This document shows positions 12,986 through 48,205 of a stretch of 64,000 nt of DNA, one piece after another. The notes below the pieces were generated by a model. That model searched no databases. It saw nothing but the letters and a program-made list of their open reading frames with translations, and was not told where the DNA came from. How positions within the stretch are numbered: the first letter of the stretch is position 1; each line of letters begins with the position of its first letter. Position numbers and translations under genes: made by a program. Origin of the DNA: Gammaproteobacteria bacterium (GTDB lineage: Bacteria > Pseudomonadota > Gammaproteobacteria > S012-40); assembly GCA_029883265.1 (NCBI GenBank), contig JAOUJM010000001.1:10511-74510 (forward strand). Reading direction: 5' to 3'.

Positions 12986-12986
12986 T

Positions 12987-14254: not shown

Positions 14255-14259
14255 GATAA

Positions 14260-16264: not shown

Positions 16265-16267
16265 CTT

Positions 16268-16792: not shown

Positions 16793-16814
16793 CTAATCCC
16801 AAACATCAGTCAAG

Positions 16815-18732: not shown

Positions 18733-18755
18733 GTAAGCGTCCTAAACTCCGCACC
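18733..18755 (+). repeat. IS66 left terminal inverted repeat (copy 2)
   Basis: GTAAGCGTCCTAAACTCCGCACC. The canonical IS66-family end starts GTAAGCG. Confidence 0.75.
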
Positions 18756-18816
18756 TTCCCAGTCAGTTTAAGATCCGTTAGCCTGCTGCTGTGTAAATTA
18801 CCAACAGGAGCAGGCA

Positions 18817-21846: not shown

Positions 21847-24800
21847 TTATTTAAACGCGTTGATAAAATATTGCATATCGTGCAAATCCACAGGGTCCAA
21901 ATAACTTTGCCATGGCAAGGGCTGTTTCGCTTCATTTACGGCCGGTACGGCAATACGAGTGCCTGCGGCTTCTGGCATTTGTCCGGGGCCAAAACGATGC
22001 CAGCCAATGTCCCTACCATAAGATACATCATTAAGTGCCATAACAGCCGCGAGTAAATTTTTTGGGACTGTACCCCATTGGTTGAGGACGGAGTCCACCA
22101 CTGGACTAGCCTGGAGTGTGCTCAATATTTCACCCGGCGTATAGAATGCGTAAACATTTTTCTTTAAGTGATTCCGATCCATTCCATAGCGCTCAATTGT
22201 ACCATCACTGAGTCCTGCCGCGTTAAAGGTAACCGCACTGGATTTCAACCTGCCAGCTTGTGCCGAAGCAATGCCGCCACCGAGGGAGTGACCGGTAAAG
22301 GTTAGTGGTGATGAGCCTAACGCTATTTGAAGATCAATTGCAAGATTGATCCCAAATTCATATTGGGTCGAATTGAAATCGGATCCTTGAGCAATACTTG
22401 CTACTGCATCTTTAACCGCTTCATGCCGGCCCAATTTCGTATCCGTTCCTCGATTGGCGAATATAAATTCGCTTGTGCGATAATTAAAATAGAGTGCGCC
22501 TTGGTAGCCACTCTTCTTATCTACAAAATTTTCAGGTTTCATATCCAGGACATCAATAAAATCCCTACCCATGCGGTAAATATCCTCAGTGACTTTCTTT
22601 GGTTCCTTTCCGGTGTATTCTTGATAAACATCGTCAGATACCATAGCGTTTTCATACCAATCAAGGCTTCCACTAAAGTCCAGTCTGATTGGAGCGGCAC
22701 TAGCAAGCTGCGAGTTATATAGCGTTCCGTTTTCATCAACTAGCTGTCCGTTCTTGAATGTGAGTATCGGTTTGGTTTCAACGGCATCGGATGATTGTCT
22801 ATAAGGAATTTTGCCTGGGGCAGAGTTTTGGACGCTTACCTGGCCATACCCATTATACGTTTTACCGCCATTACGAATAAGATTGCGACCTGGCTGGATT
22901 CCCCCAAATAGCGGCAACTCACCCAAAGCAGATTTCCAAGCATCCTCACCAGACACGCCTTTGCGAATAGACTTGGTGTAGTGTTTCTTAATCGCCTGTC
23001 TTTGTCGGTGGTCGTTTATTTTCAACTCATCAAGTTTGTTATCAAACTTTTTGGTCGACTGCTCAGCACTAATATATCCCGACGCAGCACTACTTAGTGC
23101 CTCAACAGCAACCGTCCGCCAGTCCGGCCGGTAGTCTTTCAGAGTCATGGAGTTAACGGCTATGCGGCCAACTCCAGTTAACGCACCACGTATCGCATCG
23201 CCTGCAACACCCGCGAAACCCCATCCATCAACTTTCCCAACGTTGCTTGGTAATGAAGATGTGACTCCACCCACTAATGCGCCAACCGCTACATTCGCGA
23301 ACAGATTTCCTGCTTGGCTATTGTATTTTTTACGCTGCTCAGTTGACTCCATGGCCATCGATAAGCCAGTCGATATAAGTGCTCGTCCCGCACCTTGTAG
23401 TGCACCCTTAACAACCCCTCCTCCTGTCTGATTCAATCCAGGTATTTGTGATATGATCGCGGCGATTGTCATTGATTTAACAATTTCTTCCTCGTCAATT
23501 TCATCGATGTAACCAACATTCTTCATGTATTTCTGTATGGCATACGAGGTCATTCCGGCAGCAATAATCGCCCCTTGCGGACCAAACACTATAAAAGCAG
23601 CAATAGATATGACAACAGAAGCAACATTCATCCAAAATATTTCAGACTTCGAGGGTTGATTCCTTGCAGGCATGCTTGGGTCCGTACTTCCAATTATCTC
23701 TCCCGGACTATAAGGTTTGAAGGTATCGGCATTGTTATGAATGTTTGTGACAACATTCGGAATGATTATGGATATTCCAGGTGTTAAATCAATATTGGTG
23801 ATATTGTTTGCGTTTGCAATCACATACCAAAGACTAGCATCTCCCCATACTTTACCTGCAATCGTTTCCAAAGTGTCACCTTGCACAACGAGGTATTCAC
23901 TGGCTGTATTCGCAGGATAGTTAGCACTAATGGCTTGATAATTTTGATCAAAGTCTGCTGAAATAACTCGATTCTTCCCTCTTTTTTCGTTATCTGCAAT
24001 CTCCTTGTTTGATAGTCGCGACTGGGCAAGTATTTGTGTATAGTCGGTTTCACCGGCACCTCGGTTGGATACTTCACCAATACCCCGTCCATTAAGATAG
24101 AAATAGCGGTTTACATCGTAATTTGTATTATCGATTTCATTACGCATAATGATTCGGCCGTCGGCATCAACCGTAAACTCAACTCGGCGCTCATATTTGG
24201 TGCCATGTAGTGGTGAGTTGGAATCATCCATTCTCATCAAGTGTCCATTTTGGTCATAATAAAGGTGAGAATACCCGTCAACAAAACCACGTGAATTTAC
24301 ATCCGACCTACCAACACTCTTTTTTGCAGAATCCCAATAGCTATAGAAATAGGAATTCCTGAAATTCTTTTGTTCCTCAATGCTCTTTACTTGATATGAG
24401 ACATTCTTTTCAGCTAGATCTAAACGATCTATTTCACGATAGGTGTAATCGTTATGAATTGTTGACTGCTCTTGCAAATATAGAAATTGATCCTCAGAAT
24501 TTTCCACTCTTTTACGATACTCAATACGAGAGATACGACTATCCAGATCATAGCTATAGTCGTATTGTTGTACAGACTGGGGTGGAATTGTGGTAACAAC
24601 AGTTTCTATATCTGGGTCATATAAATGAGAGGAGCTCGTTCGACCTAGCGCATCTAGCAAGCGCCGAGACACTAAATTTTTGTCTTCAACATTATCGACT
24701 ATTTTTCCGTGTTCAACAGTTTCTAAAATACCATTTTTTGTATATCCATATCGTTCGATCATAGTCGTATTCGCGCGAATATAGTTAACGCCAATTCGCT

Positions 24801-27800
24801 CACCTGCAAGATTATACAGGACTTCATATCCTTTATTTTCTGCAATTTCGACATTGCCAGACCCACCGACATCGAGTCTACCTTGTGTAATTCTAAATCG
24901 GTTCATTGAGTCGTAGTCATACCAATGTTCCTGGACGAAATCTCCAGTCGCTTCTCTATAGTCTGCTCCTCGATGAGCGTTAAGATCAATACCACCGTGG
25001 TACTTGGATACCACATGAATGCGATTTCCCATTTCGTCGTAATCATATGTAATATTGAAAAACGGATCGTTAATCTCGACAACACGATTGTAGTCATCAT
25101 ATATCGCTATCGTATATTGATAATCTTTTCCAATATCGGCATTTGCTCCCTCTTCGTAAACCGCTTCATAGGTTTTGTTACCATTGTTGTCGTAGCCATA
25201 CCGACTAACCAATCTAACACCATCATTTCCACCGTTAAAACCATAATCTACTTTTGCCTTTAATGACCCGTTATCATTGTAGTCAAACTCAATCACTTGA
25301 TCATAATCAGAATGATTAGTCATAAAATTGTTCAGACTATAGCGATATAAATCCATGTAGTCATAAGTAAAACCATGTAGCTGTGTATCAATATTATTCC
25401 ATGCGGCATCAGTTGCAATAATTGAAGCACCCGGATCCGTATTACCGATTTGATAGCGCAACTGCCCCCTTGCATCATAAAAATAGCGATAGCTACGGTT
25501 TCCGAGATCACGGTGGTAAACGAGCTTATTGAAATAGTCATATTGGTCTGTGATGGCTCGTGTTTCATAGTGCGGAATAATAATTTGAAGTCCAGCTTTC
25601 AAATCCGCATCAGTAATGTTATTTGCTTGACCTATCGAATTTGACATGTCTTCAACATTTAGTAAGCTATAGGCTATGGACGCCAAGGTATCGCCAGTTT
25701 GGACAATATAATTTAATTTTTCCCGACGTCCATAAAGGTAGACGGTTAATGTGTTTCCGACCACCAGTGTTTCGTCAACGACACCATTATCACTTCCAAT
25801 CCGGTTCGCTACCTCAGAGACTCTCAACAACTGTCTTGCAATAGATTCTAGCGTGTCACCGGACCTGACAATATACAAATTGCCAGAATAGGTTGTTTTG
25901 CTGAACCCCCCTTCCTGACCATTAAAGGTGAGATAGTTATAATCGTAACGAGTAACTTTATCACCATAGCTGACATGTTTTACCACCCGTCCTAATGCAT
26001 CGAAATAAGTCCGCTCTCGTCCACCGCCTTGGTCATGGAGAATTTCGTCATGGGAATTTGTATCCGGGTCAGTTAGATCGAGTGATGTATCAACTAAATT
26101 GATATGTGCAATTCGGTTACCATTTTCATCATATTCGTACTTTTCAACATTGTCGTATATATTGCTAGTTTCTTCAGTAATACCACCAAAAGAGCCTAAT
26201 ACATATTTTATAACATTATGTTTTTCTTTAGTAACATAGGTAATTTGGTTATTGTGATCAAACTGATATTTTGTCACGCGATCTGAGTCAGCTGTTAGCT
26301 TCTGACGTTTTTCAATTACATTACCAAAGCCGTCATAGACATAGGTCATTCCGCCCCCATCAGGGTTGAACTCCTGCTTGAGGCCATTTTGGTCATAAGA
26401 GAATCTTTTTAAATTGTTGCGTGCATCTGTAATTCCAGTGACATTACCCAGCTTGTCATAGTAATAAATCGCATTGGCATCCTGAATAGTTTGAAGCCGA
26501 CTGTAATAACTATTTCGAATTGGATCTTTTCGCGGATTACTTTTTCTAATTAGATTACCCATCTTGTCATATTCAAAGTAGGTATAGATATCTTTGCCAT
26601 CTTTTTCTTGGACAATTTCTCCAAAAGCGTTGTAGTAGTGAGATTTGTGAATTTGTACAAACTGGTCTGGATCGCTGTTATCACTAGAATTCACGCGACG
26701 ATGTGAGTAAAGTGACGCCTCACCTGTTAAATCGATGGACAATTGTCCCTGCAATACTTTGGCATTGGGATCATTTGGTTTATAGGTATAATTAATAACA
26801 TAGTCACCGGAATAGCTTCTTGGAACTGAATATCTTTGTCTCGTGCTGTCCGTTATAGTACGGAAAATTATTTCTTTGTATGTTTCACCGCCAGATTGTC
26901 TAATTGTTGCTGACAGTGTTCCTTGTGCTGGATCAACGTTTTCAAGATATACATCCCTGATATAATACCAAGATAAGCTAGAATCCATAAATGGAAATGA
27001 AGTAACGCGAGCCTCAATCGAATTATCACCATCATCCGAGCTAAAAGCGTTGCCATCTAAGCGCAAATGACTGCCTGGTTCTACTGATGGGTTATTAGAT
27101 AAATTCAGAATTACTTTCCCTGTATGAGGCGTTAAATCTGGGTTTGTTGCTTCATTGTCATAATGATATTCATATTTCAACTCAAACTGTCCTTCGAGTC
27201 CAGCATCGCCAAAATTCCAGGTTTGCCAGGAAGGATTAAAACCACTCGGTGTATCAAAATGTTCAACAGTAACCCACTCAGTTTCACCCACCCGTCTAAT
27301 CTCTACCGTTAGGGTGCCCAGAGACTTTGGTACATTCTTTAATATAATATCTCGACCATAGTACTGGTCGACAGCAACGTAATTATTCTGGCCGTCCACG
27401 TCACGAAAGCTTCCTGATACCGACGCAATGGTATAGCCATTCTTCTTGATTGTGGCACTATATGTCCTGGAACCAATATCATGTCCTTTCGGCGTACGAT
27501 AATGCGCGTCCTTACCGCCACTCCCATATGTGATAATTTTTTCTTCTTCATTATTCGGATTAAACTCTAGCACCAGACTACCTTCACCGTAGGAATTCTT
27601 GATTGAATCCACATTCGGATCTACGGCATCCCACCAAGTCTCCGCCCAGTCTTTACCTACAGCGTCATGAACACGTAGATGTAAACCACCATAGGGGGTA
27701 ACTTCAATATCAACTTTTCTATCACTTAATGTCTGGTATAGAGTTTGTGAAATCGACTGAGTGTGCGATGGTTCGTAAATATGAACAAGTTCGTTTCTTT

Positions 27801-33800: not shown

Positions 33801-36800
33801 TGCTATTACCATCGGTTGATTGAATCACACGACCAAACGCGTCATAGGTTCGCTTGGTTTCGATTTCGAGTCCAGTATGACCCGCGACAGACACGTCTTT
33901 AAGGGTTGAGGTTGAAAGACCGCGACGATCATAAACATACGTGTCGCTACGACTCGTTTGCCCGGTAAGTGCTTGACTGACAGGTATCAGCGTAGGATCT
34001 TGCTGCTGCACCGATGAACTTATTTGACCGAACGCATTGTATGCATATTCGGTGCGTTGGCCTTCGCCATTGATGGCCCGCCATATGGCACCGCGAAGAT
34101 TGTAAGAAGACTGAGTTCGACTATCGACCATCGTATTTCCACTAAGCCTATCAAGAAAAGATGGAGTTACCAAGCCACCGGTCAACGTATTACTATTAGT
34201 GATGCGGGTGGAGTACGCAACGGTTTCTTTCACTTCACCGAATTGGTTATAGCTCAATTCGTTGACTTCGGCGACATTACTCAAAACCTTACCACTTTCA
34301 TCCAGAGTACCGCTGACGTCCTGTGCAGTAAAACGCAAACGACCATTATCATCATAATAGAACCAAGTTCGATGATCGTTTTGATCTTTGGTCGACGTTC
34401 TTAATCCTTGCTCGTTATAGGTATGAGTAACTCCATAGATTTCCCAAAGTAAATCTAATTCAGATTCACTAGGATTTATTAATGTGTCAAGCTTGGCGAT
34501 ACCTTGTGCATTAAGTTGCTCACCAATTAAGCGTCCTTGAATATCATAACGTAACAACGACGACCGCTGGTTATGAGTATAAGAAAAACGACCCGGCAAA
34601 TTCAGCATTTCCCCAACCGTTGGGGAAGCGGCACCCATGAGTTCCGCAAACGCCACAAAAGCATTGGCATTCGCTGTGTGATAAACCGATCGAACAATGC
34701 TTTCCCACGTATCACCTGATTGTACGGTATAACCATTTTCTGGGGCTAAACTGACATCAAGATCGGCAAACTCAAGCAGAGCATTGAGGTAGGAATCTGT
34801 TTGTCGAATCAGATTACCCACGTCATCGTACGCATAACTCGTCACTAACCCATCAACAGAATTAGTCACTGTTTCCATCTGATTTAATTCAGTGTAAGTC
34901 TTAACAATCGTTTTATCATTCACATGCGCCAATCGTTTCTGAATCAAACCATGCGCAACACTAACGGAATATGTATCTGGTGTTGCAACAACTTGCTGAT
35001 GTTCGCCTGTGGTAATGGATTGTATTTGCAGATCACGGCTCGTAAGATCATTATTCACAAACGTTAAATCAATCGTGTACGTATCCCGCTGATCAAACAA
35101 TGCATTAATCTGGTAGTCTTTAAAGTTTTCGCTGTCGACAACAATACTGTCAACCAGTACTCCATCGACGCGTACTTCCATGATCGGATATGTTCCATCG
35201 GCCGGAATGCCTTTCGCGCTTATGATTAATGCTTTGTTGTTGTAACGTATGCTTTCTGTCTCGTTGCCGTTTAGGTCATAGGAAAATGTACTTAGGTAGC
35301 CTTCTGCATCATGATTGGCAATCAACTGGCCTTTGGCATTGTAGAAATTGTAGCTATATTGATCTTTGGCTAAATTTCTTACGATAGCATCCTTCAATTG
35401 CTGTAAACTTGCACTGGCTAAATTCGCAGTACTGCGATTCGCATAGGCGCTGGTTTTCACCACTTGCCCTGCCGCATTATATTCTGTCTCGGTTAAGTAA
35501 CCTTCCGCATCAAGCGTCGCAACAAGTTGTCCATCATTGTTATAGAAAAACCGAGTGCGTCGATCGTTATTCGCATCTTCGTTTACATAAGTACCTGTTG
35601 TTGAATCGAGAAAATATTCTGCTCTGGGGTTATTCGGCATCCCAGTGATAACAAAAGGATTCGCATAAGCAATACTGTGAGTGAGTTGATTACTTCCATC
35701 ATAGAAATGTTGAGTAACTGCAACCCGTGTCACATCATTGTCATACGGCGTTAATTGCATCACCAATCGATCTGCATCGTCGTAGATAAAATAGTTGATT
35801 CGGTCGCTGGGGCTGCTATTGGGTTTGATTGCGCTTAACTCATAGAAATTGCTGCCTGCAACATAGGGATAATTGACGATCGACTGGAGGACTGGCGTCG
35901 AATATTCAATGGTTTTTATTACCCGTCCCGCATCGTCATAAACGGTTTCAGTCAACCCGCCTTCTTTATCCACCGTCGCCACTAAACGATTTGTAGCATC
36001 GTAGTAATTTTGGGAATAGTTGCCGGTTTGATCTATAGTCAGGCGCAGGTTGCCGGAGGAATCATACTTGTATTCAATTGTTCCCAACGGATTCAACTGA
36101 CCATCCTGCTGAGATTGTGATATGGCATAACCGTGTGAATCGTACACAGTGGTTGTCTGCAATTCATTTGCATCGGTTCGAACAATTTGATTTCCGACAT
36201 CATCATAGAAATAAGTCGTCGTATGATTCAGTGGTTTGTTTGATGCCAGTAATCGTCCTAATCCATCATAGGTGAACGTTGTAATAAAGTCTCTTGTTTC
36301 ACCCGTTGCTGCTGCTTGAGCCTCAATCGTTTCAATGAGAATGCCTTGGGCGTCATAAACAAAATGTGTGGTACTGGCAGTGGTAGTGACGCCCGCACCG
36401 GTCGTTGGATTAATCGAATCAAAGGTGGTCACCGTGCTTATATTGCCGCGGAAATCATACGTCGTATCACTGCGCTGTAAAATATTGCCCACGTTAACAA
36501 CCGAGTTGTAGGGCGCTTGATTCAATAATGTTGCGGATATAGGTGTAGCGGGATCTAAAGCACTGGTATCAATATGCCCCTTATAAAGGATTTGGCTGAT
36601 TTGTCTCCCTTGCGTATCATATACATATTCATTGACGACACCCTCGGAACTAACTGTAAATACCAAATGTTGCTCTGCGTCATAGATATAAAAACTACTT
36701 TGTGCATCTGAGGCACCGACACCACCGGTCCCAGTGTTATTGATATCCGCACCATCGGGGTCATTCACGCGATAACGGGTTTCGGAAATAATTTGATTAA

Positions 36801-39800
36801 CATCATTATATTCATAATCAACACGCACGCCTTCACTATCAATCATTGACGTACGATTGCCCTGATCGTCATAAGCAAAACGCGTTATATTGCCATTTTG
36901 ATCGGTAATGGACGTTATGTTATCGCTGCTGCGACCATCCTCATCATAACCATAAACCATCCGATTTTGATTTTGGTCATAGAACTCATGTAATCGATTC
37001 TGCTCATCAAGAAAATAATTCGTCTGTGTATTGCGAGTCAGATCCTCAACCATCGTCCGGGTGGATGTTGTTTCATTTTTCACATAATAGAAATTGAGTG
37101 GCATGATTAAATCCATGCCTTCGACGAGTGAGGTGACGCCCTGCGAGGCAAAATATTCCTGCAAACTCACAGCGAGTTGTTCGTCGCCATAAATCGCAAA
37201 CGCAATGTTTTCCCAAGTGTCACTCGCACTAACCGTGTGAAAGGGTGGGAGCGTAAACTCTTGATAAGTGGGTGAAAAGAAATTGAAGGTATGACTACTC
37301 AGATTATTTTCAATCAGGCCACCACCCACACTGCTCCAGTCATTCCATAGATAAAAGGCCTGTCCTTGCTCGTCCAGTGATAAATCGACCAGAACTTTAT
37401 TACCAGTTCCCACACCATCTTGAGCAACTTCGTCACTCCAGCCACGACCGGGAACATAGTATCTGCTTTTAACAACTGCGGCGCCCGACGCACCATCTTC
37501 CCAAAGTGCGACGATACGCCCTTGTTTGTCCTGCTCAATTCGGTAATCAAAATAATTCGAATTACCTCTGGATGTAGCGCCGAGTAATTTAGTGTCACTC
37601 AAACCGTTAACAGAATCAAAAACTCGCGTATAAAGATTGCCGCCATTCTTCCACGTCACCAACCATTGATCACCATCCAACTTGAAGATTTCTGGATTGA
37701 TATTCGTGTTATATAAAGTGCTTGAAATCGTATCGACAACAAAACCCGTTGACCAAGCAGCGCCGCCTTCTGAATACCATAGATTGATTTTTGGACTGGA
37801 GGCCTGTACAAAAACCATAAGTCGATTACCCAAGCCATCACTTTCTAACTTAATATTGTTGCCACCATCTAGTACACCAAAACCCGGAATACTTAACTTT
37901 TGTGATGCAGCCCATCCTGTAGCTACCGAATAGCGCATGGTGCGAACTGCTCGGGAAATTTCCCAAACCACTTCCAAACCACCATCGGGGAGAACAGTGG
38001 CATTAAAATCGGCGTTGTAGGTGCCACCCAGATAGGTTTCACCAATCCAACCCGATCCCAAAACATAACGATCGGCTTTAATGGGTTGTGGATTGGTGGA
38101 GGTATTACCTTCAGTCCATACTAGATAAACATCACCATTATGGCCTTGATGTAATTGAAATGGTTTCCATTCGGGAAAGCTCACCGGTGCTTTAACAGTG
38201 GGTGCGCTCCAACTATTCGTTGATGCATCATAAAACATCACCATTAAATTGCCGGAGGTATTGGCAAGATTCATTTCATAATATGCAACGGTAATATTGC
38301 CCGCGTCATCAATTAATACCTGGGGCGCTTCCATACGCGTGGACATTGCTTGCCCATCCACCAATGTTATTGCAGCTTGCCAATTTACATTAGTACCGCT
38401 TTGTTGATAGCGACTGATATATAGACTTTTAGATTGTGCAATACTTTGATCGGCCAAGACATCATTATCAATCCAAACTGCCACACCCTGCCCGCTGGTG
38501 TTAGACGCTACATCGATACTTTCTTCCGCTTGCGCCGATGTGCTATACACGGTGTTGGTTGCGACGGCGTGTTCCGCATTGCTTAGCCAACCAGGATAGA
38601 AATCACCGGCATAAACAATCTTTGTAGTCTGTAATTGTTCTGGAAGGGCGATAGCAGAGGCAACTTTATTTAAGTCGAGATTAATGCTTTTGTTTACAAA
38701 TTCACCACTAACTATTTCCGACCAACTCAGTAATCCGAAACCTAGCTCATTCACACTTAGATAAGGACCATAAATACTACTGTCACTTGCGGCCACCTGA
38801 CTCGGACTTGTCCAATTTGCACCATCAAGTGAATAACGCACGAAAAGCGTGCTCGGACCATTTTGTTCACGCCACACCAGTGCCATTCGACCTTGATCAT
38901 CTTGATGAACCTCATAATCAAAATAAAGATAATGACTGGTGAAGCTTTGCTGGGTCGCCACGGATGTTGTTGTCGACCAGCCCGTTGCTGAATCAAATCG
39001 CTTGGAAAACACTTCCTGGTTATCCTTCCAAAACAACACCCAATTGCCTTCCCCTTGATTGAGCAGTTTTAGATCCTTATTGCGATAGGTGCTTGAAGTT
39101 AATACGCTATCGATATTTTCAGTGGTTGTGGTATCACTCATCGCATCATAATACGATGTACCTAAAACACCGGCGTTGTACCACACCATGAGGCGGTTTC
39201 CTACAGTGTCGCTATCGTGGGCGATATTTGCATAGGTATTTGTAATGAACTGATTCTGGGTTGGTTGAACACCGACGCCTGCAATGTAGTCAGTAACTTT
39301 AACAAGATTGCCTCGCGACCAGGCAACGCTCGCATTACCCGACTCGGTGACATCTAATACCGGATACAAATTGAAAGTGGTACCATAGAGACGATCATTG
39401 ATAAATTGCGCGCCCGTCCAACCGGATCCCGCGACAAATCTATCCAAAACAATATCATTGTATTCCGGCGAGGGACTGTCTTGGTTGTACATCAGATAAA
39501 AAGCCCCGGTTCCACCGGTTTTCAGCTCAAAAAGCCGTTTTGAGTCGTAATTTGCAGCCATGTTCTGAATGGTATGTTGCTGCTCGGATTGCCACGTTTG
39601 TGTTGCCGCATCGTAAAAACGTGTCATCAAATAGTAATTACTAGACGTCAGCTCAGCACCATCATTCTCCTGCCACGCAATCATGGCATTACCTGCATCA
39701 TCAATGGCGACCTTAAGATCATAGAAAGTGACGGTGGGTGTGGTTTGTCCTATGGCAGGTTCGGCGCCAACAGTAATGCTTTTTGGTTCACCCCAGGAGC

Positions 39801-41001
39801 CACCAAACTCATTCATGGTGTAGTGTGAAACAAAAATGCTTTTGGAATAACCACGGCTGAAATCGCTCGTGGTGTTATCCTCGATCCATGCGGCAACACC
39901 AGAACCATTTGCACTCATAGCGACATGAGGATTGATCGCTGCGTATTGAGTGGTTTGGGGTAGTGTTTGCAAGGTTCCCGTAGACACAACTCGTTCACCC
40001 GGATAGGTGTAACGTGTCTCATTCCCCAACACATCGCTTACCGTTTGTAACTGACCGGCTGCATTATAGGTAAAAGAAATACTAACCCCATCACCACTGG
40101 TAATGTTACTGATTAAATGGCTCACATCATCCCGATAGGTATAAGTCGTTACATAACGTTGGCCATTAATCGTAGAATTGGTTGTACCGCTAATAGCACT
40201 GATGAGCGAATCGGGTGATAAATCAACAATCACCTGAGTTAAACGATTCAATGCATCATAAGTGTAATGGGTGCGTGCACGGGATTCGACAGCTTGAGTT
40301 TTAGTATCTCGAACCGTACTGGCGATTTTTGTTAAATTTCCTTTAGGGTCATAAACAAGATTAACTGTTTCGACAATACCTTCTGCTTGTAGTAGTTCAA
40401 TTTTTGAAACAAATTGACTGGGCGTGGATCCCCCACCGTAATTATATTTAATTTCATTCTGATCAGAATCAACAACACGACTAACACCCCAAATCGCGCT
40501 ACCATCTGTTGCGGTACCAATTTGCGTATATTCTTCGGTAAAGCTTGAGTTGCCATCCCAAAATGTCCAGTTAGTACCATCAAAAGTTAATATATCATGA
40601 GCGCCATCACCGTCAGTGCTAATGTAATGGTTGTTGGCTTGATCATAAGTAAAGAGTGCTTCAAATCCATCCTTATACGATTTGATCACACTGGAACCAT
40701 CTTGGTTGACCGTTCCCGACAAGCTATGAACACGACGATTTACTCCTAGTCGCCAGTTATCACCATTGTCATCATTTTTCTGACCCAGACTGTTATAAGT
40801 ACGAACCAGATTGAAATCGAGTCCCAAACCAGAGATAAATTCATCCTGGGCTTGCACCACCAAATTACCCGTTTGGGTATTCACATAAACATTGTCGCCA
40901 TTGCGGCCCAATCGAGCTTTGCCTTGGCCGGCATCATTGCCGATGAGATTAAGTGAGGTGTTGTATAAACCCAGTCCTTCACCATTGGTTATCGCAACCA
41001 T
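21847..41001 (-). CDS. Giant RHS/YD-repeat polymorphic toxin (6,384 aa) with a C-terminal class-3-lipase-like (GHSLGGGIA) toxin domain
   Basis: Single uninterrupted 19,155-nt ORF. N-terminus GRNGDNVYVN…LVRTYNS (RHS N-terminal motif). About 16 W-containing Asp-box-like repeats (S-x-D-G-x-x-W-T) in two groups. Dozens of YD repeats (YxYDxxGNL/R). Five LysM-like segments (Y-x-V-x-x-GDTL-x-x-IA). A Gly-rich hydrophobic segment (FWMNVASVVISIAAFIVFG…). Then the IRR-encoded VSVQNSAP and a GHSLGG serine-hydrolase domain. RBS GGAGA at 41007-41011. Confidence 0.9.
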   Translation of the reverse strand: MVAITNGEGLGLYNTSLNLIGNDAGQGKARLGRNGDNVYVNTQTGNLVVQAQDEFISGLGLDFNLVRTYNSLGQKNDDNGDNWRLGVNRRVHSLSGTVNQDGSSVIKSYKDGFEALFTYDQANNHYISTDGDGAHDILTFDGTNWTFWDGNSSFTEEYTQIGTATDGSAIWGVSRVVDSDQNEIKYNYGGGSTPSQFVSKIELLQAEGIVETVNLVYDPKGNLTKIASTVRDTKTQAVESRARTHYTYDALNRLTQVIVDLSPDSLISAISGTTNSTINGQRYVTTYTYRDDVSHLISNITSGDGVSISFTYNAAGQLQTVSDVLGNETRYTYPGERVVSTGTLQTLPQTTQYAAINPHVAMSANGSGVAAWIEDNTTSDFSRGYSKSIFVSHYTMNEFGGSWGEPKSITVGAEPAIGQTTPTVTFYDLKVAIDDAGNAMIAWQENDGAELTSSNYYLMTRFYDAATQTWQSEQQHTIQNMAANYDSKRLFELKTGGTGAFYLMYNQDSPSPEYNDIVLDRFVAGSGWTGAQFINDRLYGTTFNLYPVLDVTESGNASVAWSRGNLVKVTDYIAGVGVQPTQNQFITNTYANIAHDSDTVGNRLMVWYNAGVLGTSYYDAMSDTTTTENIDSVLTSSTYRNKDLKLLNQGEGNWVLFWKDNQEVFSKRFDSATGWSTTTSVATQQSFTSHYLYFDYEVHQDDQGRMALVWREQNGPSTLFVRYSLDGANWTSPSQVAASDSSIYGPYLSVNELGFGLLSWSEIVSGEFVNKSINLDLNKVASAIALPEQLQTTKIVYAGDFYPGWLSNAEHAVATNTVYSTSAQAEESIDVASNTSGQGVAVWIDNDVLADQSIAQSKSLYISRYQQSGTNVNWQAAITLVDGQAMSTRMEAPQVLIDDAGNITVAYYEMNLANTSGNLMVMFYDASTNSWSAPTVKAPVSFPEWKPFQLHQGHNGDVYLVWTEGNTSTNPQPIKADRYVLGSGWIGETYLGGTYNADFNATVLPDGGLEVVWEISRAVRTMRYSVATGWAASQKLSIPGFGVLDGGNNIKLESDGLGNRLMVFVQASSPKINLWYSEGGAAWSTGFVVDTISSTLYNTNINPEIFKLDGDQWLVTWKNGGNLYTRVFDSVNGLSDTKLLGATSRGNSNYFDYRIEQDKQGRIVALWEDGASGAAVVKSRYYVPGRGWSDEVAQDGVGTGNKVLVDLSLDEQGQAFYLWNDWSSVGGGLIENNLSSHTFNFFSPTYQEFTLPPFHTVSASDTWENIAFAIYGDEQLAVSLQEYFASQGVTSLVEGMDLIMPLNFYYVKNETTSTRTMVEDLTRNTQTNYFLDEQNRLHEFYDQNQNRMVYGYDEDGRSSDNITSITDQNGNITRFAYDDQGNRTSMIDSEGVRVDYEYNDVNQIISETRYRVNDPDGADINNTGTGGVGASDAQSSFYIYDAEQHLVFTVSSEGVVNEYVYDTQGRQISQILYKGHIDTSALDPATPISATLLNQAPYNSVVNVGNILQRSDTTYDFRGNISTVTTFDSINPTTGAGVTTTASTTHFVYDAQGILIETIEAQAAATGETRDFITTFTYDGLGRLLASNKPLNHTTTYFYDDVGNQIVRTDANELQTTTVYDSHGYAISQSQQDGQLNPLGTIEYKYDSSGNLRLTIDQTGNYSQNYYDATNRLVATVDKEGGLTETVYDDAGRVIKTIEYSTPVLQSIVNYPYVAGSNFYELSAIKPNSSPSDRINYFIYDDADRLVMQLTPYDNDVTRVAVTQHFYDGSNQLTHSIAYANPFVITGMPNNPRAEYFLDSTTGTYVNEDANNDRRTRFFYNNDGQLVATLDAEGYLTETEYNAAGQVVKTSAYANRSTANLASASLQQLKDAIVRNLAKDQYSYNFYNAKGQLIANHDAEGYLSTFSYDLNGNETESIRYNNKALIISAKGIPADGTYPIMEVRVDGVLVDSIVVDSENFKDYQINALFDQRDTYTIDLTFVNNDLTSRDLQIQSITTGEHQQVVATPDTYSVSVAHGLIQKRLAHVNDKTIVKTYTELNQMETVTNSVDGLVTSYAYDDVGNLIRQTDSYLNALLEFADLDVSLAPENGYTVQSGDTWESIVRSVYHTANANAFVAFAELMGAASPTVGEMLNLPGRFSYTHNQRSSLLRYDIQGRLIGEQLNAQGIAKLDTLINPSESELDLLWEIYGVTHTYNEQGLRTSTKDQNDHRTWFYYDDNGRLRFTAQDVSGTLDESGKVLSNVAEVNELSYNQFGEVKETVAYSTRITNSNTLTGGLVTPSFLDRLSGNTMVDSRTQSSYNLRGAIWRAINGEGQRTEYAYNAFGQISSSVQQQDPTLIPVSQALTGQTSRSDTYVYDRRGLSTSTLKDVSVAGHTGLEIETKRTYDAFGRVIQSTDGNSNITQFGYDRLGRQVQTRNALDVSRSQTYDAFGRVLTMTDAFLNVTTYAYDDATHTLTVTTPELIQTQTITDRNGQTIKIIDGNQSAANSNDGTEYHYDTNGKLVKVVDMLNNTITSEYDKAGRLTHTVDKNGVYSKFEYDAANRVMTRTVDPMTIHTTGDNETGLNIQTQYVFDGLGRKVTTIDANGVHTDTEYDRAGNVLAVVVDAVNGGLNLRTEYTYDAEGRQLTVTEGANSTQARETQYIYDHLGRRTDTIVDPGGLNITTKYYYDAADNMVRKVEGYRRVDVSGLSGSLTLNYAFDDQTLTSSYYVMWSNVTSLATDRILLKENGTTVYDSPADSDFGRYRRGRSGFTYELVLLRNGLELSVATVLPFTPALGAFSETSEVAFATDLSAEDTSHSMRYVYDDVNRLRYSIKNADVLDFEYMELDPIPTGQLAVVVESVYNDRGDKVKTIQYALPISTTTLDDHSTEADILSLVSASADLAKDIVDYSVFDDDGRLTVTVNAVGNYTVYEYDDNGNVIRQSRLANSVSTTDLATINSTNTELLAQTILQKRPDVIANDQGDHFAYDKLNRLRYSVDAMGYVNEKRYDASGQVILSMRYASKETTFADYKEATIRGNLAGNSSTDQINHYFYDNAGRKIYSIDALGYVNQTSYDALGQAIVASRFYQALTINSYQDSTPTAAEWNTYLETRINTLNRQVVDVTETTPLVTATSGKDRVSFQQYDAAGRVSFSVDAEGYVTGREYTGDLLSRVTQYANQLQVVNDTTAEGFPESGVATLATQRFDVRNEGDIQLLVSGTNLLYRNSDTTSGDRSTRYVYDDAGRLYQEILENVSYTTHSTDENGDLVTEYGYDAFGNTTSIVKRLNISGDELQRTTQEFSQRGLLTRRTVYLEAASVVANLDTAHPQTQMAYSSEFGYDAFGNQTKIIDPRGIELTETDSDWADNERKLILGLTATTNLSYIQLTQDQKDTLLNYYSTYQTFDQLNRKTASVIKEGAGSTVNIFELKKTDYDAFGNITKITEPYDTISYFYYDKLDRNTLVVDPERYVTTKAYDGMGNLTGTMQYATAIAAAHTVDDNTTESQILETFLEINTDKDQKTLLNYDQLNRKTELTNAESVKEKYDYDAFGNQIGKLLGHQPITNVLDPDYQRSLGYQYHYNYDRKGNLTSEYLPIANKGGISDRESIEVGMDGRFLLPFIDFETTGFERQTNEFSYDAFGNRRISREAAGMEEERSRSYTYNKLNLLVKTENHRIKLSAGDSVGITTTIEQKYNVVGNLVREIDANLNITQHYYDNLGRRIATHDAEGFLKTFAYDSVSNIIEERKYRDTATFADSIYKFTVSNVYMQLTHRYDAFNQIVETKLPAEHRYEKDRMVPIGDPGDDQFIKEENYVSETVIRKYYDHKGRLVREVDGNENSIFHYYDKKGNKRVTVDALRYATQWNYDAFNNAIREEKASIRLRDVVDENTSLLEVLEKFETNGYEDRIVQVNLEEGYFYPYFWQVGDGMPSVMYVKINLPTLKQGDYYVIRAARADGTYHTTFPTTTILTKGTIPLRSYNTGEIKEFVITLISNSDSFEIARVDTNLMLGSQGWHSGYSAFDVNRLKISDVDYVGGVWSASLLREGETTATPVDVMVNENGEAFFDVGNISGRATVSYILQDNDRVIKSGSINLSNVNVATNGGYNFVIESVDLRDNQYSDSRIKNYSFDKLNRLKTDSLENFQTYSFSNGNMQSGVLEDSVTAYVYDVMGNITTIVDAESNTTNYSFDVLGRLLTKKSGLKSTKNIYDAHGNVIEARNIASEKDSESRNIPLNGAPSLANLDQIQKFSYGVDGRLLEDWDANFNANVSEEYGANNKYTYDAVGNVRTQSLNRHDADGNLFTDIAEYIYDRLNRNIVSGKRTEKNSSVYAYFENKYTEYNGYEKAAFQGAYERNTLQLSRPEANKARQVFFEYDSNGNLIKTNSDGVVKEYAYDRNGNATKEILPSITDNNAPSVYRSSVYNERNELVHIYEPSHTQSISQTLYQTLSDRKVDIEVTPYGGLHLRVHDAVGKDWAETWWDAVDPNVDSIKNSYGEGSLVLEFNPNNEEEKIITYGSGGKDAHYRTPKGHDIGSRTYSATIKKNGYTIASVSGSFRDVDGQNNYVAVDQYYGRDIILKNVPKSLGTLTVEIRRVGETEWVTVEHFDTPSGFNPSWQTWNFGDAGLEGQFELKYEYHYDNEATNPDLTPHTGKVILNLSNNPSVEPGSHLRLDGNAFSSDDGDNSIEARVTSFPFMDSSLSWYYIRDVYLENVDPAQGTLSATIRQSGGETYKEIIFRTITDSTRQRYSVPRSYSGDYVINYTYKPNDPNAKVLQGQLSIDLTGEASLYSHRRVNSSDNSDPDQFVQIHKSHYYNAFGEIVQEKDGKDIYTYFEYDKMGNLIRKSNPRKDPIRNSYYSRLQTIQDANAIYYYDKLGNVTGITDARNNLKRFSYDQNGLKQEFNPDGGGMTYVYDGFGNVIEKRQKLTADSDRVTKYQFDHNNQITYVTKEKHNVIKYVLGSFGGITEETSNIYDNVEKYEYDENGNRIAHINLVDTSLDLTDPDTNSHDEILHDQGGGRERTYFDALGRVVKHVSYGDKVTRYDYNYLTFNGQEGGFSKTTYSGNLYIVRSGDTLESIARQLLRVSEVANRIGSDNGVVDETLVVGNTLTVYLYGRREKLNYIVQTGDTLASIAYSLLNVEDMSNSIGQANNITDADLKAGLQIIIPHYETRAITDQYDYFNKLVYHRDLGNRSYRYFYDARGQLRYQIGNTDPGASIIATDAAWNNIDTQLHGFTYDYMDLYRYSLNNFMTNHSDYDQVIEFDYNDNGSLKAKVDYGFNGGNDGVRLVSRYGYDNNGNKTYEAVYEEGANADIGKDYQYTIAIYDDYNRVVEINDPFFNITYDYDEMGNRIHVVSKYHGGIDLNAHRGADYREATGDFVQEHWYDYDSMNRFRITQGRLDVGGSGNVEIAENKGYEVLYNLAGERIGVNYIRANTTMIERYGYTKNGILETVEHGKIVDNVEDKNLVSRRLLDALGRTSSSHLYDPDIETVVTTIPPQSVQQYDYSYDLDSRISRIEYRKRVENSEDQFLYLQEQSTIHNDYTYREIDRLDLAEKNVSYQVKSIEEQKNFRNSYFYSYWDSAKKSVGRSDVNSRGFVDGYSHLYYDQNGHLMRMDDSNSPLHGTKYERRVEFTVDADGRIIMRNEIDNTNYDVNRYFYLNGRGIGEVSNRGAGETDYTQILAQSRLSNKEIADNEKRGKNRVISADFDQNYQAISANYPANTASEYLVVQGDTLETIAGKVWGDASLWYVIANANNITNIDLTPGISIIIPNVVTNIHNNADTFKPYSPGEIIGSTDPSMPARNQPSKSEIFWMNVASVVISIAAFIVFGPQGAIIAAGMTSYAIQKYMKNVGYIDEIDEEEIVKSMTIAAIISQIPGLNQTGGGVVKGALQGAGRALISTGLSMAMESTEQRKKYNSQAGNLFANVAVGALVGGVTSSLPSNVGKVDGWGFAGVAGDAIRGALTGVGRIAVNSMTLKDYRPDWRTVAVEALSSAASGYISAEQSTKKFDNKLDELKINDHRQRQAIKKHYTKSIRKGVSGEDAWKSALGELPLFGGIQPGRNLIRNGGKTYNGYGQVSVQNSAPGKIPYRQSSDAVETKPILTFKNGQLVDENGTLYNSQLASAAPIRLDFSGSLDWYENAMVSDDVYQEYTGKEPKKVTEDIYRMGRDFIDVLDMKPENFVDKKSGYQGALYFNYRTSEFIFANRGTDTKLGRHEAVKDAVASIAQGSDFNSTQYEFGINLAIDLQIALGSSPLTFTGHSLGGGIASAQAGRLKSSAVTFNAAGLSDGTIERYGMDRNHLKKNVYAFYTPGEILSTLQASPVVDSVLNQWGTVPKNLLAAVMALNDVSYGRDIGWHRFGPGQMPEAAGTRIAVPAVNEAKQPLPWQSYLDPVDLHDMQYFINAFK
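22817..22839 (+). repeat. IS66 right terminal inverted repeat (copy 2), translated on the minus strand as VSVQNSAP inside the giant ORF
   Basis: GGGGCAGAGTTTTGGACGCTTAC, directly followed by the TSD. Confidence 0.75.
22840..22847 (+). repeat. 8-bp target-site duplication CTGGCCAT (right copy)
   Basis: Matches 18725-18732 exactly. On the minus strand it encodes (Y)GQ of the giant protein. Confidence 0.85.
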
Positions 41002-41011: not shown

Positions 41012-41063
41012 CTAGAATCAGTACTTATAATTTATCGTCTACAAGTTATATCCAGGGTTTAAT

Positions 41064-48189: not shown

Positions 48190-48205
48190 GCAGGTTCCTG
48201 TTGGC

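Follow-up and report, generated by a model that had tools for sequence, protein, structure and literature searches.

How does a bacterial protein of 6,384 residues, built largely from RHS/YD repeats, leave the cell that makes it? This question is raised by the locus above, in which a single open reading frame with an ATG start occupies 21847..41001 on the minus strand of the window, that is, the whole 64,000-nucleotide stretch of DNA analysed. A preliminary description made from the sequence alone had given the secretion route of this protein, here called the giant, as unknown. That statement is now superseded by a specific candidate, since synteny and a sigma-28-class promoter point to a filament-less flagellar-type type III secretion system (T3SS).

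Architecture of the giant and its toxin

The giant ORF is real and intact, and does not look like an assembly artefact. The window was assembled from short metagenome reads, and the repetitive nature of YD proteins could in principle produce an artificial ORF through a chimera or a collapsed repeat, a reading we regard as next to impossible. The preliminary description had asked whether repeats had collapsed; the ORF contains no DNA repeats other than those of the YD motifs, 28-42 nt in length and 62-79% identical, and the best internal self-identity of the protein is 42% over 60 aa. Matching contigs come from four other samples, with 99.98-100% agreement over as much as 11.8 kb of the window, and contig k141_160683 of ENA ERZ27296342 encodes the same 6,384-aa product, bearing out the earlier claim of a single intact ORF. 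Intact relatives of 4.4-12.9 kaa are also found in finished genomes of cultured bacteria. The ORF had been called exceptionally large, but its size is typical for the family, in which relatives range from 4,442 to 12,948 aa. The giant contains no cysteine, and family members contain 0-4 cysteines per 4,400-6,400 aa.

The assignment to the RHS/YD proteins was confirmed by matches to RHS_repeat (PF05593, with TIGR01643-type repeats) in every third of the giant, at E values of 1e-24 to 1e-73. We counted 54 YD motifs, and the existing annotation includes PF25023 TEN_YD-shell. The shell starts with a DUF6531 domain at aa 40-95 (29.3 bits against a Pfam cut-off of 24.1 bits), and by Foldseek (E 3e-10 to 1e-4) the AF2 model of the N-terminal region resembles T6SS Rhs cores, TcB/C and teneurins. 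In this model aa 36 is the first residue of confidently predicted beta structure. The preceding 35 residues have a pLDDT below 30, and among 20 relatives Met1, Gly7, Leu10, Gly11, Leu12, Gly21 and Gly27 are invariant or nearly so. This N-terminal conservation across the family, as judged from the alignment, is a new result. The 35-residue segment, which is predicted to be disordered, is a candidate export or chaperone-binding signal, and its conservation together with its predicted disorder is consistent with a putative T3SS export signal.

As the preliminary description had stated, the usual N-terminal secretion domains are absent: searches with Pfam and NCBIfam and a scan of the sequence returned no PAAR, prePAAR, LXG, TPS, signal peptide or VgrG-like region in the giant, and domain searches found no clade domain. 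Its statement that no DPxGL autoproteolysis motif precedes the toxin also stands. The only DPxG[LI] matches lie mid-shell, at aa 2657 and 3331, with no DPxG[LIVMW] beyond aa 3331. The RHS-associated core model TIGR03696 had no match in the giant at E <= 0.01, and when aa 4801-5800 were compared with Rhs cores in the PDB only generic YD repeats aligned. The gene product is a giant polymorphic RHS/YD toxin without a canonical Rhs core or DPxGL site.

What precedes the toxin is a different module. The single TM-like segment of the giant (aa 5786-5818) is followed by a Gly-rich region and then by the lipase, in agreement with the Gly-rich hydrophobic segment noted previously. LysM domain 5, the first element of the module, is conserved by alignment in the Burkholderia, Ralstonia and Eleftheria giants, and the module as a whole is common to the giant and to those of B. 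ubonensis, R. solanacearum and Eleftheria, the three relatives compared, while the last 350 aa of the four proteins are unrelated. This LysM-TM-Gly-rich module takes the place of the Rhs autoprotease core, a conclusion that stands whatever the export route.

The toxin itself is shown by sequence comparison to be a predicted phospholipase of the Tle6 family. The C-terminal lipase matches PDB 7UBZ_B, labelled 'T6SS lipase effector', at a phmmer E value of 1.5e-10 over aa 6198-6313, and the existing annotation includes PF26363 Phospholipase-like. Ser6239 lies in a GHSLGGG motif and Glu6291 follows at Ser+52, a spacing equal to that between Ser341 and Glu393 of Tle; H6335 and H6374 are candidates for the catalytic histidine. 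According to a published account (PMC11470151), Tle6 lipases always occur together with an ankyrin immunity protein. An ankyrin-repeat protein with a signal peptide and a lipobox-like ...FMCSAC sequence at its N-terminus is encoded directly downstream of the giant, and this periplasmic lipoprotein should neutralise the lipase. With a variable C-terminal toxin, a downstream immunity gene and orphan cassettes, the giant follows the polymorphic-toxin plan. By eye, the orphan ORF at 16268-16756 resembles the C-terminal toxin of the R. solanacearum giant, with which it has the HEGQH motif in common.

The giant also carries a number of inserts, for which the preliminary description holds in part. 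It had proposed tandem BNR-type propellers. The tandem arrangement is supported, as the two units are 28-30% identical in self-BLAST, and unit 1 matches a local HMM of the propeller family at E 7e-122, with 418 remote homologues among 1.84 billion representatives. A BNR/sialidase type could not be demonstrated; no Pfam BNR/Asp-box match to the giant exceeds threshold, the nearest being BNR_4 at E 1e-3 and 19 bits against a cut-off of 27.3 bits, and the propellers are generic and 7-8-bladed. Three of the five LysM segments proposed (at aa 5043, 5098 and 5703) pass the Pfam LysM model PF01476 (E 1.7e-16, 60.3 bits in total against a cut-off of 20.9 bits), and those at aa 1255 and 2091 stay below significance. 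Among the Ig/CBM-like insertions, one CBM60-like insert has a borderline match (E 3.5e-6, 27.8 bits against 28.2 bits), and the others called 'Ig-like' have none. Propellers are absent from the intact Burkholderia, Ralstonia and Eleftheria relatives and from the N-terminal ~7,000 residues of the Undibacterium KW1 giant. On this comparison of sequences both propellers, the additional LysM copies and the CBM-like insert are accessories of particular lineages, which probably serve in binding.

Table 1. Positions of the giant's parts and of neighbouring features in the window
Feature	Position	Strand	Basis
Orphan toxin/immunity cassette array, beyond an IS66 insertion, downstream of the giant	9194..18817	-	
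LHH nuclease, orphan array	12987-13433		
HEGQH toxin, orphan array	16268-16756		
Imm59-like gene, orphan array, with TNT fragment	17560-17853		
TNT toxin fragment, orphan array	17834-18817		
Ankyrin-repeat lipoprotein, Tli-like immunity protein	21095..21823	-	Pfam Ank_2, Ank, Ank_4
Tle6-type phospholipase toxin (predicted), aa ~6150-6384	21850..22554	-	phmmer, motif, existing annotation
Remainder of pre-toxin module, aa 5751-6010: P.VTNIHN..TF.PY linker, TM helix, Gly/Ala-rich hydrophobic region	22972..23751	-	Hydrophobicity scan, alignment
LysM domain 5, aa 5703-5750, first element of pre-toxin module	23752..23895	-	Pfam LysM
Long YD-repeat shell, aa 1345-5690, ~3,200 aa of YD repeats plus inserts	23932..36969	-	RHS_repeat and YD_repeat_2x matches throughout
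LysM domains 3 and 4, tandem, aa 5043-5145	25567..25875	-	Pfam LysM
LysM-like segment 2, divergent, aa 2091-2138	34588..34731	-	Regex; partial Pfam LysM, E 0.11
CBM60-like insert, aa 1926-2004	34990..35226	-	Pfam CBM60, borderline
LysM-like segment 1, divergent, aa 1255-1302	37096..37239	-	Regex, likeness to the other four; no Pfam match
Beta-propeller unit 2, aa 777-1234	37300..38673	-	
Beta-propeller unit 1, aa 340-769	38695..39984	-	Self-BLAST, local HMM
DUF6531 plug and first YD hairpins (start of Rhs shell), aa 36-339	39985..40896	-	Pfam, Foldseek
Conserved N-terminal peptide, aa 1-35, MVAxxSGxGLGLxNSSLxxLG..G..GR.GD	40897..41001	-	Alignment and AF2
Sigma-28-class promoter of the giant	41046..41075	-	PWM from relatives
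Two TPR proteins, 185 and 362 aa, candidate chaperones	47101..48763	-	Pfam TPR
FliA/WhiG-like sigma factor, divergent	48804..49538	-	Pfam Sigma70_r2, r4
Flagellar-type hook-basal-body/T3SS cluster, runs past window end	49551..64000	-	Pfam

The family of giants and its promoter

The giant belongs to a family that is so far uncharacterised, with members in Burkholderia, Ralstonia, Variovorax, Undibacterium, Eleftheria and Steroidobacter. RefSeq names the relatives 'LysM peptidoglycan-binding domain-containing protein', 'tandem-95 repeat protein' or 'hypothetical protein'. They include WP_162062193.1 of Undibacterium KW1 (8,221 aa), WP_301260612.1 of Eleftheria terrae (5,105 aa), WP_069240722.1 of B. 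ubonensis (4,897 aa), BCN11938.1 of R. solanacearum (4,442 aa) and WP_162044930.1 of Undibacterium YM2 (12,948 aa). The RefSeq relatives share the conserved N-terminus with the giant at 31-38% identity over ~330 aa, and by this sequence criterion we take those listed to be true family members. They differ from the giant in their toxins. None of those with sequence checked, the YM2 protein left out, has propellers, and those with full sequence checked have one LysM only; in the 5,306 aa read of the YM2 protein the body is mostly non-YD. Most have the sigma-28-class promoter and several have the same flagellar-like cluster.

The promoter of the giant consists of a -35 element CTGAAC (41075-41070), a spacer of 16 nt and a -10 element GGATATAA (41053-41046), and straddles the boundary of a 450-bp duplication. 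The consensus for the family is CCCTAAAC-N16-GGATA(t)A, given here as CTAAAC-N16-GGATAA, from which the -35 element in the window deviates at one position. FliA recognises the consensus TAAA-N15-GCCGATAA; the spacing of the family motif is the same, and the -35 and -10 labels are assigned by analogy with it. CTAAAC occurs in 72 of the 86 upstream regions (3.2 expected), and 40 of the 45 hits to the strict motif on both strands of the 1.82 Mb of fetched loci fall within 260 nt upstream of the start of a giant. Scored with the PWM of the relatives, the site before the giant is the second best in the whole window and the best on its strand. The motif is present also at giant loci away from the flagellar cluster. 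The placing of this family under a conserved sigma-28-class promoter is, on the sequence evidence, a new finding that stands whatever the export route, and a large family of 4-13 kaa toxins so controlled would remain a result in any case. A housekeeping FliA, and not the sigma factor of the cluster, could be what reads the promoter.

Gene neighbourhood and possible routes of export

Upstream of the giant the window contains a flagellar-type cluster in the order FlgF, FlgG, FlgA, FlgH, FlgI, FlgB, FlgC, FliE, FliF, p163, FliH, FliI, FliJ-like, p226, FlgD, FlgE, FliM/N-like, FliN, FliO, FliP, and the contig goes on with FliQ, FliR, FlhB and FlhA just beyond the window. NCBIfam models class the export gate as flagellar, and FlhB retains its NPTH site. 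No flagellin, FlgK/L, FliD, MotAB or detectable FliG was found in this cluster, including its part of the contig beyond the window. Likewise, no filament, junction, cap, stator or FliG gene is annotated in the whole feature table of pUYM01, and none was found in the cluster flanks of pMSMB2035. The sigma factor next to FliP scores 105 bits against TIGR02479 FliA_WhiG, under the 189.6-bit cut-off, and directly follows FliP in relatives too. The TPR proteins have sub-threshold similarity to the T3SS chaperones SctY and LcrH/SycD, TPR being a generic fold, and genes like that of the 362-aa protein adjoin giants at other loci.

The order FliQ...FliP-sigma-TPR-giant runs along one strand in the window. 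The same order is found in B. ubonensis pMSMB2035, the R. solanacearum MAFF 311693 megaplasmid, Variovorax PDNC026 and six metagenome loci. In an unbiased metagenome scan, 4 of the 24 loci with at least 5 kb upstream had the cluster order and 8 had the sigma factor or a TPR gene; in metagenome loci without annotation the screen covered the flagellar, sigma, TPR and neighbouring genes known from the window. Among 72,556 plasmid records the seven best FliP matches are all in records that carry a giant, and the number of FliP-family loci is three in Ralstonia strains with a giant beside fliP_1 and two in other strains. The cluster is compact and mobile, being plasmid-borne and flanked by IS elements. 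About 70-80% of family loci are not adjacent to it. No PAAR, VgrG, TpsB or TcA gene was called or annotated beside giants in the annotated or Pfam-labelled contexts. The repeated placing of a giant after a complete cluster of this kind, with its sigma factor and TPR genes, is, as far as gene order goes, a new result.

Co-regulation of the giant with the flagellar-type cluster is well supported by these sequence comparisons, and we infer export through the T3SS from the gene neighbourhood, the shared promoter and the absence of alternatives. That the giant is a late substrate of a filament-less, flagellum-derived T3SS is the reading towards which we lean. The apparatus would comprise a basal body, rod, L/P rings and hook, without a filament, junction, cap, stator or recognisable rotor. 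On completion of the hook FlhB, with its NPTH site kept, would switch substrate class, and the FliA-like sigma factor of the cluster would drive the CTAAAC-N16-GGATAA promoter before the giant and further copies elsewhere in the genome. The unfolded, cysteine-free giant may then be recognised through its disordered N-terminal 35 residues, possibly with the TPR proteins, and threaded through the hook-basal body, the YD cocoon folding round the toxin outside. Modules that bind carbohydrate or peptidoglycan, with the hydrophobic segment before the toxin, would hold the protein to its target and let the lipase pass to the periplasmic membrane faces of Gram-negative neighbours. Against this model, a giant of ~700 kDa would be unusually large for a T3SS substrate. 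The imperfect -35 element at a duplication boundary, the majority of family loci that lie apart from the cluster, the possible reading of the promoter by a housekeeping FliA, the sub-threshold likeness of the TPR proteins to chaperones and the possible supply of filament and motor parts from a canonical flagellar locus also count against it.

It is possible, if rather unlikely, that the giant is simply co-regulated as part of a FliA-like regulon and exits by lysis, in vesicles or through an unrecognised exporter, the cluster being a second, perhaps ordinary, flagellum with its filament and motor genes elsewhere. The promoter and synteny data do speak to co-regulation and not to transport, many giants lie far from flagellar genes, and in Ralstonia the canonical flagellar locus on the same replicon could supply the missing filament and motor parts in trans. 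However, the cluster is compact, mobile and consistently without FliG, MotAB, FlgK/L, FliC and FliD, giants with differing bodies have the conserved, disordered N-terminal peptide in common, and no other secretion genes were seen beside giants in the annotated contexts examined. That the giant is a T6SS cargo effector, loaded on a VgrG/PAAR spike encoded elsewhere, is very improbable. Neither the window nor the annotated or Pfam-labelled surroundings of relatives contain a vgrG, hcp, tss or Eag gene, the protein is without PAAR, prePAAR, clade domain and VgrG-like region, the Rhs core and DPxGL release site are absent, and 4.4-12.9 kaa is far above the known size of T6SS Rhs cargo, whereas the Tle6-type toxin is of a family described for T6SS effectors and T6SS Rhs cores are the nearest match to the N-terminal fold.

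The preliminary description had suggested a cell-wall-anchored or peptidoglycan-targeting delivery mode, which may be spelled out as a surface protein like teneurins or Tc toxins, held on the producer by LysM and delivering its toxin by contact. LysM domains are present, and have been noted as an adhesion module of polymorphic toxins (Zhang et al. 2012, PMC3482391); the layout of propellers and YD shell also recalls TcB and teneurins. Yet the host is diderm, because FlgH and FlgI are present and the immunity protein is a lipoprotein, and its peptidoglycan is therefore not surface-exposed. The N-terminus is without SpvB, TcA, signal peptide or membrane anchor, many relatives lack the propellers and the extra LysM copies, and such a protein would leave the synteny and the promoter unexplained, making this proposal improbable.

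Returning to export by the flagellar-type T3SS, we tentatively put forward a wider reading, in which the cluster would be an unrecognised, horizontally mobile, flagellum-derived secretion system: a hook-basal body that has L/P rings but no filament, junction, cap or stator and no functional rotor, served by a FliA-like sigma factor and TPR chaperones of its own. Polymorphic toxins of 4-13 kaa would be its dedicated late substrates, taken up via their N-terminal peptide, and the system would form a third functional branch of T3SS beside the motility flagellum and the injectisome. If true, the motility-less intermediate postulated for injectisome evolution would have a living analogue in the cluster. 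Export by this route would be a new delivery pathway for polymorphic toxins, accounting for both the lack of known secretion domains and the near-absence of cysteine. Burkholderiales of soil and plants, among them strains of Ralstonia solanacearum, and bacteria of sediments would then carry a self-contained secretion machine that derives from the flagellum and is borne on plasmids. The evolutionary question whether a flagellum can be turned to secretion with no gain of a secretin would also become testable, and carriers include cultured bacteria.

Comparison with known systems

RHS toxins are known to be delivered by the T6SS, the T7SS, Sec-dependent routes and Tc complexes, and we found no description of a type III (flagellar-type) route for them in the literature searched. 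The closest comparison is with the T6SS Rhs effectors RhsA, Tse5 and Tse15 (PDB 7Q97, 8CP6, 8UY4), which like the giant have a YD shell starting with a DUF6531-type plug, a variable C-terminal toxin, an immunity gene next to it and orphan cassettes further downstream. The giant is 4-5 times longer, with ~3x the usual YD repeat, and its shell starts at aa 36 without a PAAR, prePAAR or VgrG-binding N-terminus. In place of the core and its DPxGL aspartyl autoprotease it has the LysM-TM-Gly-rich module, and it is tied to a flagellar-type T3SS cluster and a sigma-28-class promoter instead of a T6SS.

The YD cocoon and beta-propeller are also found in the TcB-TcC cocoon of Tc toxins and in teneurins (Foldseek E 1e-6 to 1e-4). 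We considered the giant as a Tc BC subunit or teneurin and rejected this, as there is no match to the SpvB N-terminal domain and no TcA gene nearby, and only the general fold of the YD shell is similar. Where those proteins have one 6-bladed gate, the giant has two 7-8-bladed propellers near its N-terminus, which are dispensable in the family. The lipase resembles Enterobacter cloacae Tle of the Tle6 family (PDB 7UBZ; PMC11470151), an alpha/beta-hydrolase with the same GHSLGG elbow and Ser-Glu spacing, and the E. cloacae immunity protein Tli has ankyrin repeats and a signal peptide like that in the window. E. cloacae Tle is a free-standing T6SS effector, whereas the lipase of the giant is the C-terminal warhead of an RHS protein.

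Non-flagellar proteins are exported by flagellar T3SS in Yersinia enterocolitica (the phospholipase YplA) and Campylobacter (Cia and FlaC), and Buchnera has filament-less hook-basal bodies. In these cases a flagellar-type apparatus is used or proposed for secretion, with a phospholipase among the substrates, as we propose here. A dedicated filament-less cluster paired with giant toxins had no precedent in the literature searched. Compared with these cases, the cluster in the window appears dedicated, mobile and compact, is without filament, junction, cap, stator or recognisable FliG, has its own FliA-like sigma factor and is paired with a family of giant toxins.

An intact giant RHS protein carrying a Tle6-type lipase

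The giant RHS/YD protein is encoded by one uninterrupted open reading frame that begins with ATG and specifies 6,384 residues, none of them cysteine. We considered whether a frame of this length could be an assembly chimera and rejected the idea, as no long repeats lie within it (the only DNA repeats are YD-motif repeats of 28-42 nt at 62-79% identity) and contigs from four other samples (ENA ERZ27296342, ENA ERZ27296366, JGI 3300022223 and SRA SRR7132771) agree with the window at 99.98-100% identity along as much as 11.8 kb. The best internal protein match is 42% over 60 aa. The frame is real, as the preliminary description had supposed, being intact and free of any sign of assembly artefact, with the same 6,384-aa product encoded on one 27-kb contig from another sample.

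RHS/YD repeats were found in each third of the protein (Pfam and NCBIfam, E 1e-24 to 1e-73), together with a DUF6531 plug at aa 40-95 (Pfam). Searches of Pfam and NCBIfam gave no PAAR, LXG, TPS or signal peptide match and no match to the RHS-associated core TIGR03696, and DPxG[LI] strings occur only in mid-shell, at aa 2657 and aa 3331. The family searches and motif scan thus bear out the earlier reading, in which PAAR, LXG, TPS, signal peptide and a pre-toxin DPxGL were all missing. When the terminal part of the shell was searched against PDB sequences for an Rhs core, the only matches were generic YD and LysM ones. The tandem propeller arrangement proposed earlier was confirmed, residues 340-769 and 777-1234 forming a tandem duplication at 28-30% identity; its assignment to BNR was not upheld, the single BNR_4 match falling below threshold. 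Of five LysM segments originally described, those at aa 5043, 5098 and 5703 are solid and those at aa 1255 and 2091 only LysM-like. A CBM60-like insert at aa 1926-2004 is a borderline match. The Gly-rich hydrophobic segment reported ahead of the toxin is present, and is preceded by a lone TM-like helix at aa 5786-5818.

Each propeller blade spans about 48 aa, with the consensus P.iA.D..GNA.AVW.Q.dG....I.A.RY..G.GWg.p..iE. The propeller family is large (proteins P0006-P0154 among it) and consists mainly of 400-600-aa proteins with almost no Pfam coverage. Using an exhaustive HMMER search we recovered 418 remote homologues at E <= 1e-3, the only source of such relatives, as a word-indexed homologue search with the propeller region gave no match. 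A GTDB genome scan with this region likewise gave none. The propellers and the extra LysM copies are restricted to the window protein and a subset of its relatives.

By sequence the C-terminus of the giant matches the Tle lipase of Enterobacter cloacae (PDB 7UBZ_B, E 1.5e-10), GHSLGGG included, and Ser6239 and Glu6291 are separated by 52 residues, as are Ser341 and Glu393 in Tle. The product of the adjacent gene has ankyrin repeats and a signal peptide of lipoprotein type in appearance; ankyrin immunity proteins have been reported as invariable partners of the Tle6 family (PMC11470151). Beyond an IS66 insertion lies an orphan toxin/immunity array, among whose members are a TNT fragment accompanied by an Imm59-like gene, an LHH nuclease and a HEGQH toxin. 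By eye the last resembles the C-terminal toxin of the Ralstonia solanacearum giant, the HEGQH motif being present in both. The lipase, ankyrin antidote and orphan cassettes together make this a polymorphic toxin locus, whose giant is an RHS toxin that ends in a Tle6 lipase and is paired with an ankyrin immunity protein. The two IS66-family copies in the window are about 87-90% identical, and one lies directly 3' of the immunity gene. IS66 elements likewise flank the loci of relatives in B. ubonensis and Undibacterium YM2.

Features of the window and their positions
Feature	Position	Strand	Remarks
Repeat copy at window start	1055-1094	-	AACGCTAAACCATCA(G/A)GCATCATCCGGGGTAATTC
Repeat copy at window start	1646-1685	-	AACGCTAAACCATCA(G/A)GCATCATCCGGGGTAATTC
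IS66-family copy	6847-9185		
Truncated TNT toxin ORF	17834-18817		adjoins IS66 copy
IS66-family copy	18817-21044		
Ankyrin immunity gene	21095-21823		next to giant
Giant RHS/YD toxin	21847-41001	-	
Propeller repeats	37237-39981	-	within giant
Giant promoter copy	41075-41046		CTGAAC-N16-GGATATAA
Direct repeat, copy 1	41065-41513		
Three exported proteins	42370-46089	-	within 5.9-kb insertion
Direct repeat, copy 2	46980-47428		
FliG-position protein (p163)	56779-57270	-	homologues at loci L109, L111, L115, L019, L108

The giant family and its conserved ends

Searches of protein databases with the first 345 aa gave 58 homologues, mainly fragments of broken giant genes. The initial 20-sequence alignment was too divergent for a metagenome scan, and a trimmed 96-aa alignment was used instead; it detected at least 298 metagenome loci with relatives of the first 96 aa. 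Intact giants are present in finished genomes of cultured bacteria: B. ubonensis (WP_069240722.1, 4,897 aa), R. solanacearum (BCN11938.1, 4,442 aa), Eleftheria terrae (WP_301260612.1, 5,105 aa), Undibacterium KW1 (WP_162062193.1, 8,221 aa) and Undibacterium YM2 (WP_162044930.1, 12,948 aa), and the finished genome of Variovorax PDNC026 has one of about 6,150 aa or more. With intact relatives of 4,442-12,948 aa, the window protein is not of the exceptional size that had been claimed for it. A comparison of the window protein with one of the two broken copies in Steroidobacter flavus showed the two to be colinear.

Two parts are common to the family, the N-terminus and a C-terminal pre-toxin module. 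The latter runs from the end of the YD shell (YFYvNG..iG) through LysM, P.rVTNIHN..TF.PY and a TM helix to a Gly/Ala-rich region. In the four giants compared, the final 350 aa show no relation to one another, and Pfam assigned no family to the Burkholderia, Ralstonia or Eleftheria toxins. At the other end, residues 1-35 (MVAxxSGxGLGLxNSSLxxLG...) rank with the best-conserved positions of the family. AlphaFold gives them a pLDDT below 30, with confident beta structure from aa 36 onward, and the N-terminal model beyond them matches Rhs cores. Residues 1-35 look as a linear export or chaperone-binding signal might be expected to, and are a candidate for one.

The conserved N-terminal ~100 aa of the RHS giants is shared by the 12,948-aa giant of Undibacterium YM2, a 'tandem-95 repeat protein' (locus L112, plasmid pUYM01 129783-168629) in which YD motifs are very sparse over the first 5,306 aa. 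That the module heads this different body suggests it is portable between giant bodies. The same plasmid encodes three consecutive hypothetical proteins of 3,577, 1,281 and 1,271 aa, as well as one of 1,671 aa whose annotation reads 'FliJ family protein' (large proteins at loci L113/L114, record 27718-46096 and 77777-82792). All of these might be additional cargo or components of the system.

A filament-less flagellar-type cluster and the giant promoter

Upstream of the giant and on the same strand lies a compact flagellar-type cluster, in the order FlgF FlgG FlgA FlgH FlgI FlgB FlgC FliE FliF p163 FliH FliI FliJ-like p226 FlgD FlgE FliM/N-like FliN FliO FliP, followed by a FliA/WhiG-like sigma factor and two TPR proteins. 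The contig continues just beyond the window with FliQ, FliR, FlhB and FlhA. FlhA, FliP, FliQ and FliR score above the flagellar equivalog cut-offs, so that the gate for export belongs to the flagellar type. The NPTH switch site is retained in FlhB. Flagellin, FlgK/L, FliD, FliS and MotAB are missing from the cluster, and of the FliM-like protein just the C-terminal SpoA domain remains. Every cluster of this type has a conserved protein of ~160 aa between FliF and FliH, the position of FliG. Searches of NCBIfam and PDB with the window copy, p163 (163 aa), gave no match at all, and the sole trace of FliG in its family is a sub-threshold Pfam FliG_M match in the Ralstonia homologue; p163 may be a truncated FliG or an SctK-like adaptor. 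FlgH, FlgI and the lipoprotein immunity protein indicate a diderm host. In a GTDB scan the window FliI was at best 44-49% identical to any species representative. The window has a GC content of 41% and no tRNA genes.

The same gene order, with FliP, sigma factor, TPR and giant as its last members, recurs between IS elements on plasmid pMSMB2035 of B. ubonensis, on the R. solanacearum MAFF 311693 megaplasmid (genes flgC_1, flgD_1 and fliP_1), in Variovorax PDNC026 and at metagenome loci L018, L019, L047, L057, L067 and L085. On pUYM01 the whole cluster lies within ~3 kb of the end of the 12,948-aa giant, and the annotation of the entire plasmid includes neither filament nor motor genes. When the window FliP was compared with 72,556 plasmid records, its best seven matches were all in giant-bearing ones; five of these are Ralstonia megaplasmids, in which there are three FliP-family loci against two in other strains. 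Most giant loci do not adjoin a cluster. Of the 24 loci in an unbiased metagenome scan that extend at least 5 kb upstream, four carry the cluster and eight the sigma factor or the TPR gene. The family shows recurrent synteny and co-occurrence with the filament-less flagellar-type cluster.

A common promoter element emerged only from unbiased 6-mer enrichment. CTAAAC is present in 72 of 86 non-redundant giant upstream regions, against 3.2 expected, and aligning these regions gives CCCTAAAC-N16-GGATA(t)A. The FliA consensus is TAAA-N15-GCCGATAA, and the giant motif has the same geometry, by analogy placing it in the sigma-28 class. The canonical E. coli FliA pattern, TAAA-N13-17-[GC]CGA[TA]A, showed no enrichment in front of the giants. 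In its strict form the giant motif has 45 occurrences on both strands of 1.82 Mb of fetched loci, and 40 of these precede the start codon of a giant by no more than 260 nt, which is 1.3% of the search space. The motif is also found far from flagellar genes, at the Steroidobacter, Aquabacterium, Undibacterium KW1, Eleftheria and R. pseudosolanacearum loci. The copy at the window giant has the second-best PWM score in the whole window. Two near-identical copies of another sequence, within repeated sequence at the window start, score moderately.

A direct repeat of ~450 bp at 99% identity, made up of the 3' end of a 362-aa TPR gene and ~120 bp downstream, lies on either side of 5.9 kb of sequence between the giant and the cluster. 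Because the repeat covers the 3' end of the TPR gene, the 119-aa 'TPR' frame just upstream of the giant is a duplicated fragment, and the 5.9 kb looks like an insertion that parted the giant from the TPR gene. The -35 element of the giant straddles the repeat boundary. Three exported proteins are encoded in the insertion: one of 491 aa with a signal peptide and no family match, and two lipoproteins, of 310 and 424 aa. The longer lipoprotein contains DUF6973, has a weak Wnt-family match (E 8e-5) and may be a bacterial representative of the 'Lipocone' superfamily (bioRxiv 10.1101/2025.01.14.632903).

Proposed export route and comparison with known systems

The preliminary observation is real and largely correct. 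Its interpretation, which favoured cell-wall-anchored or peptidoglycan-targeting delivery, is partly supported, and the secretion route that it left open now has a specific candidate in the flagellar-type T3SS. We consider the identity of the toxin, and its link to the cluster by co-regulation and synteny, to be very probable. The sigma factor of the cluster would drive the giants as late genes, and these would pass unfolded through the hook-basal body and fold once outside. By means of the binding modules and hydrophobic pre-toxin segment, the lipase would then reach the periplasmic side of target membranes. We lean slightly towards this full model, in which the giant is a late substrate of a filament-less flagellar-type T3SS. 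Delivery as T6SS cargo was rejected, the giant failing every T6SS-specific feature, and a Tc-like ABC toxin was also considered and rejected. A phage origin was dropped, PHROGs giving no phage signal around the gene.

Flagellar T3SSs export non-flagellar proteins, YplA and Cia being examples. We found no paper on a link between flagellar T3SS and RHS proteins, or on a dedicated filament-less flagellar cluster with giant RHS toxins, and the flagellar-T3SS route is absent from the listing of Zhang et al. 2012 (PMC3482391). It is possible that the filament-less cluster and its giant toxins form a categorically new system, a suggestion that we make tentatively. Although the giant departs from Rhs polymorphic toxins in the Rhs-core/DPxGL feature, it works as they do and shares most of the features that define membership, and its toxin is a member of Tle6.
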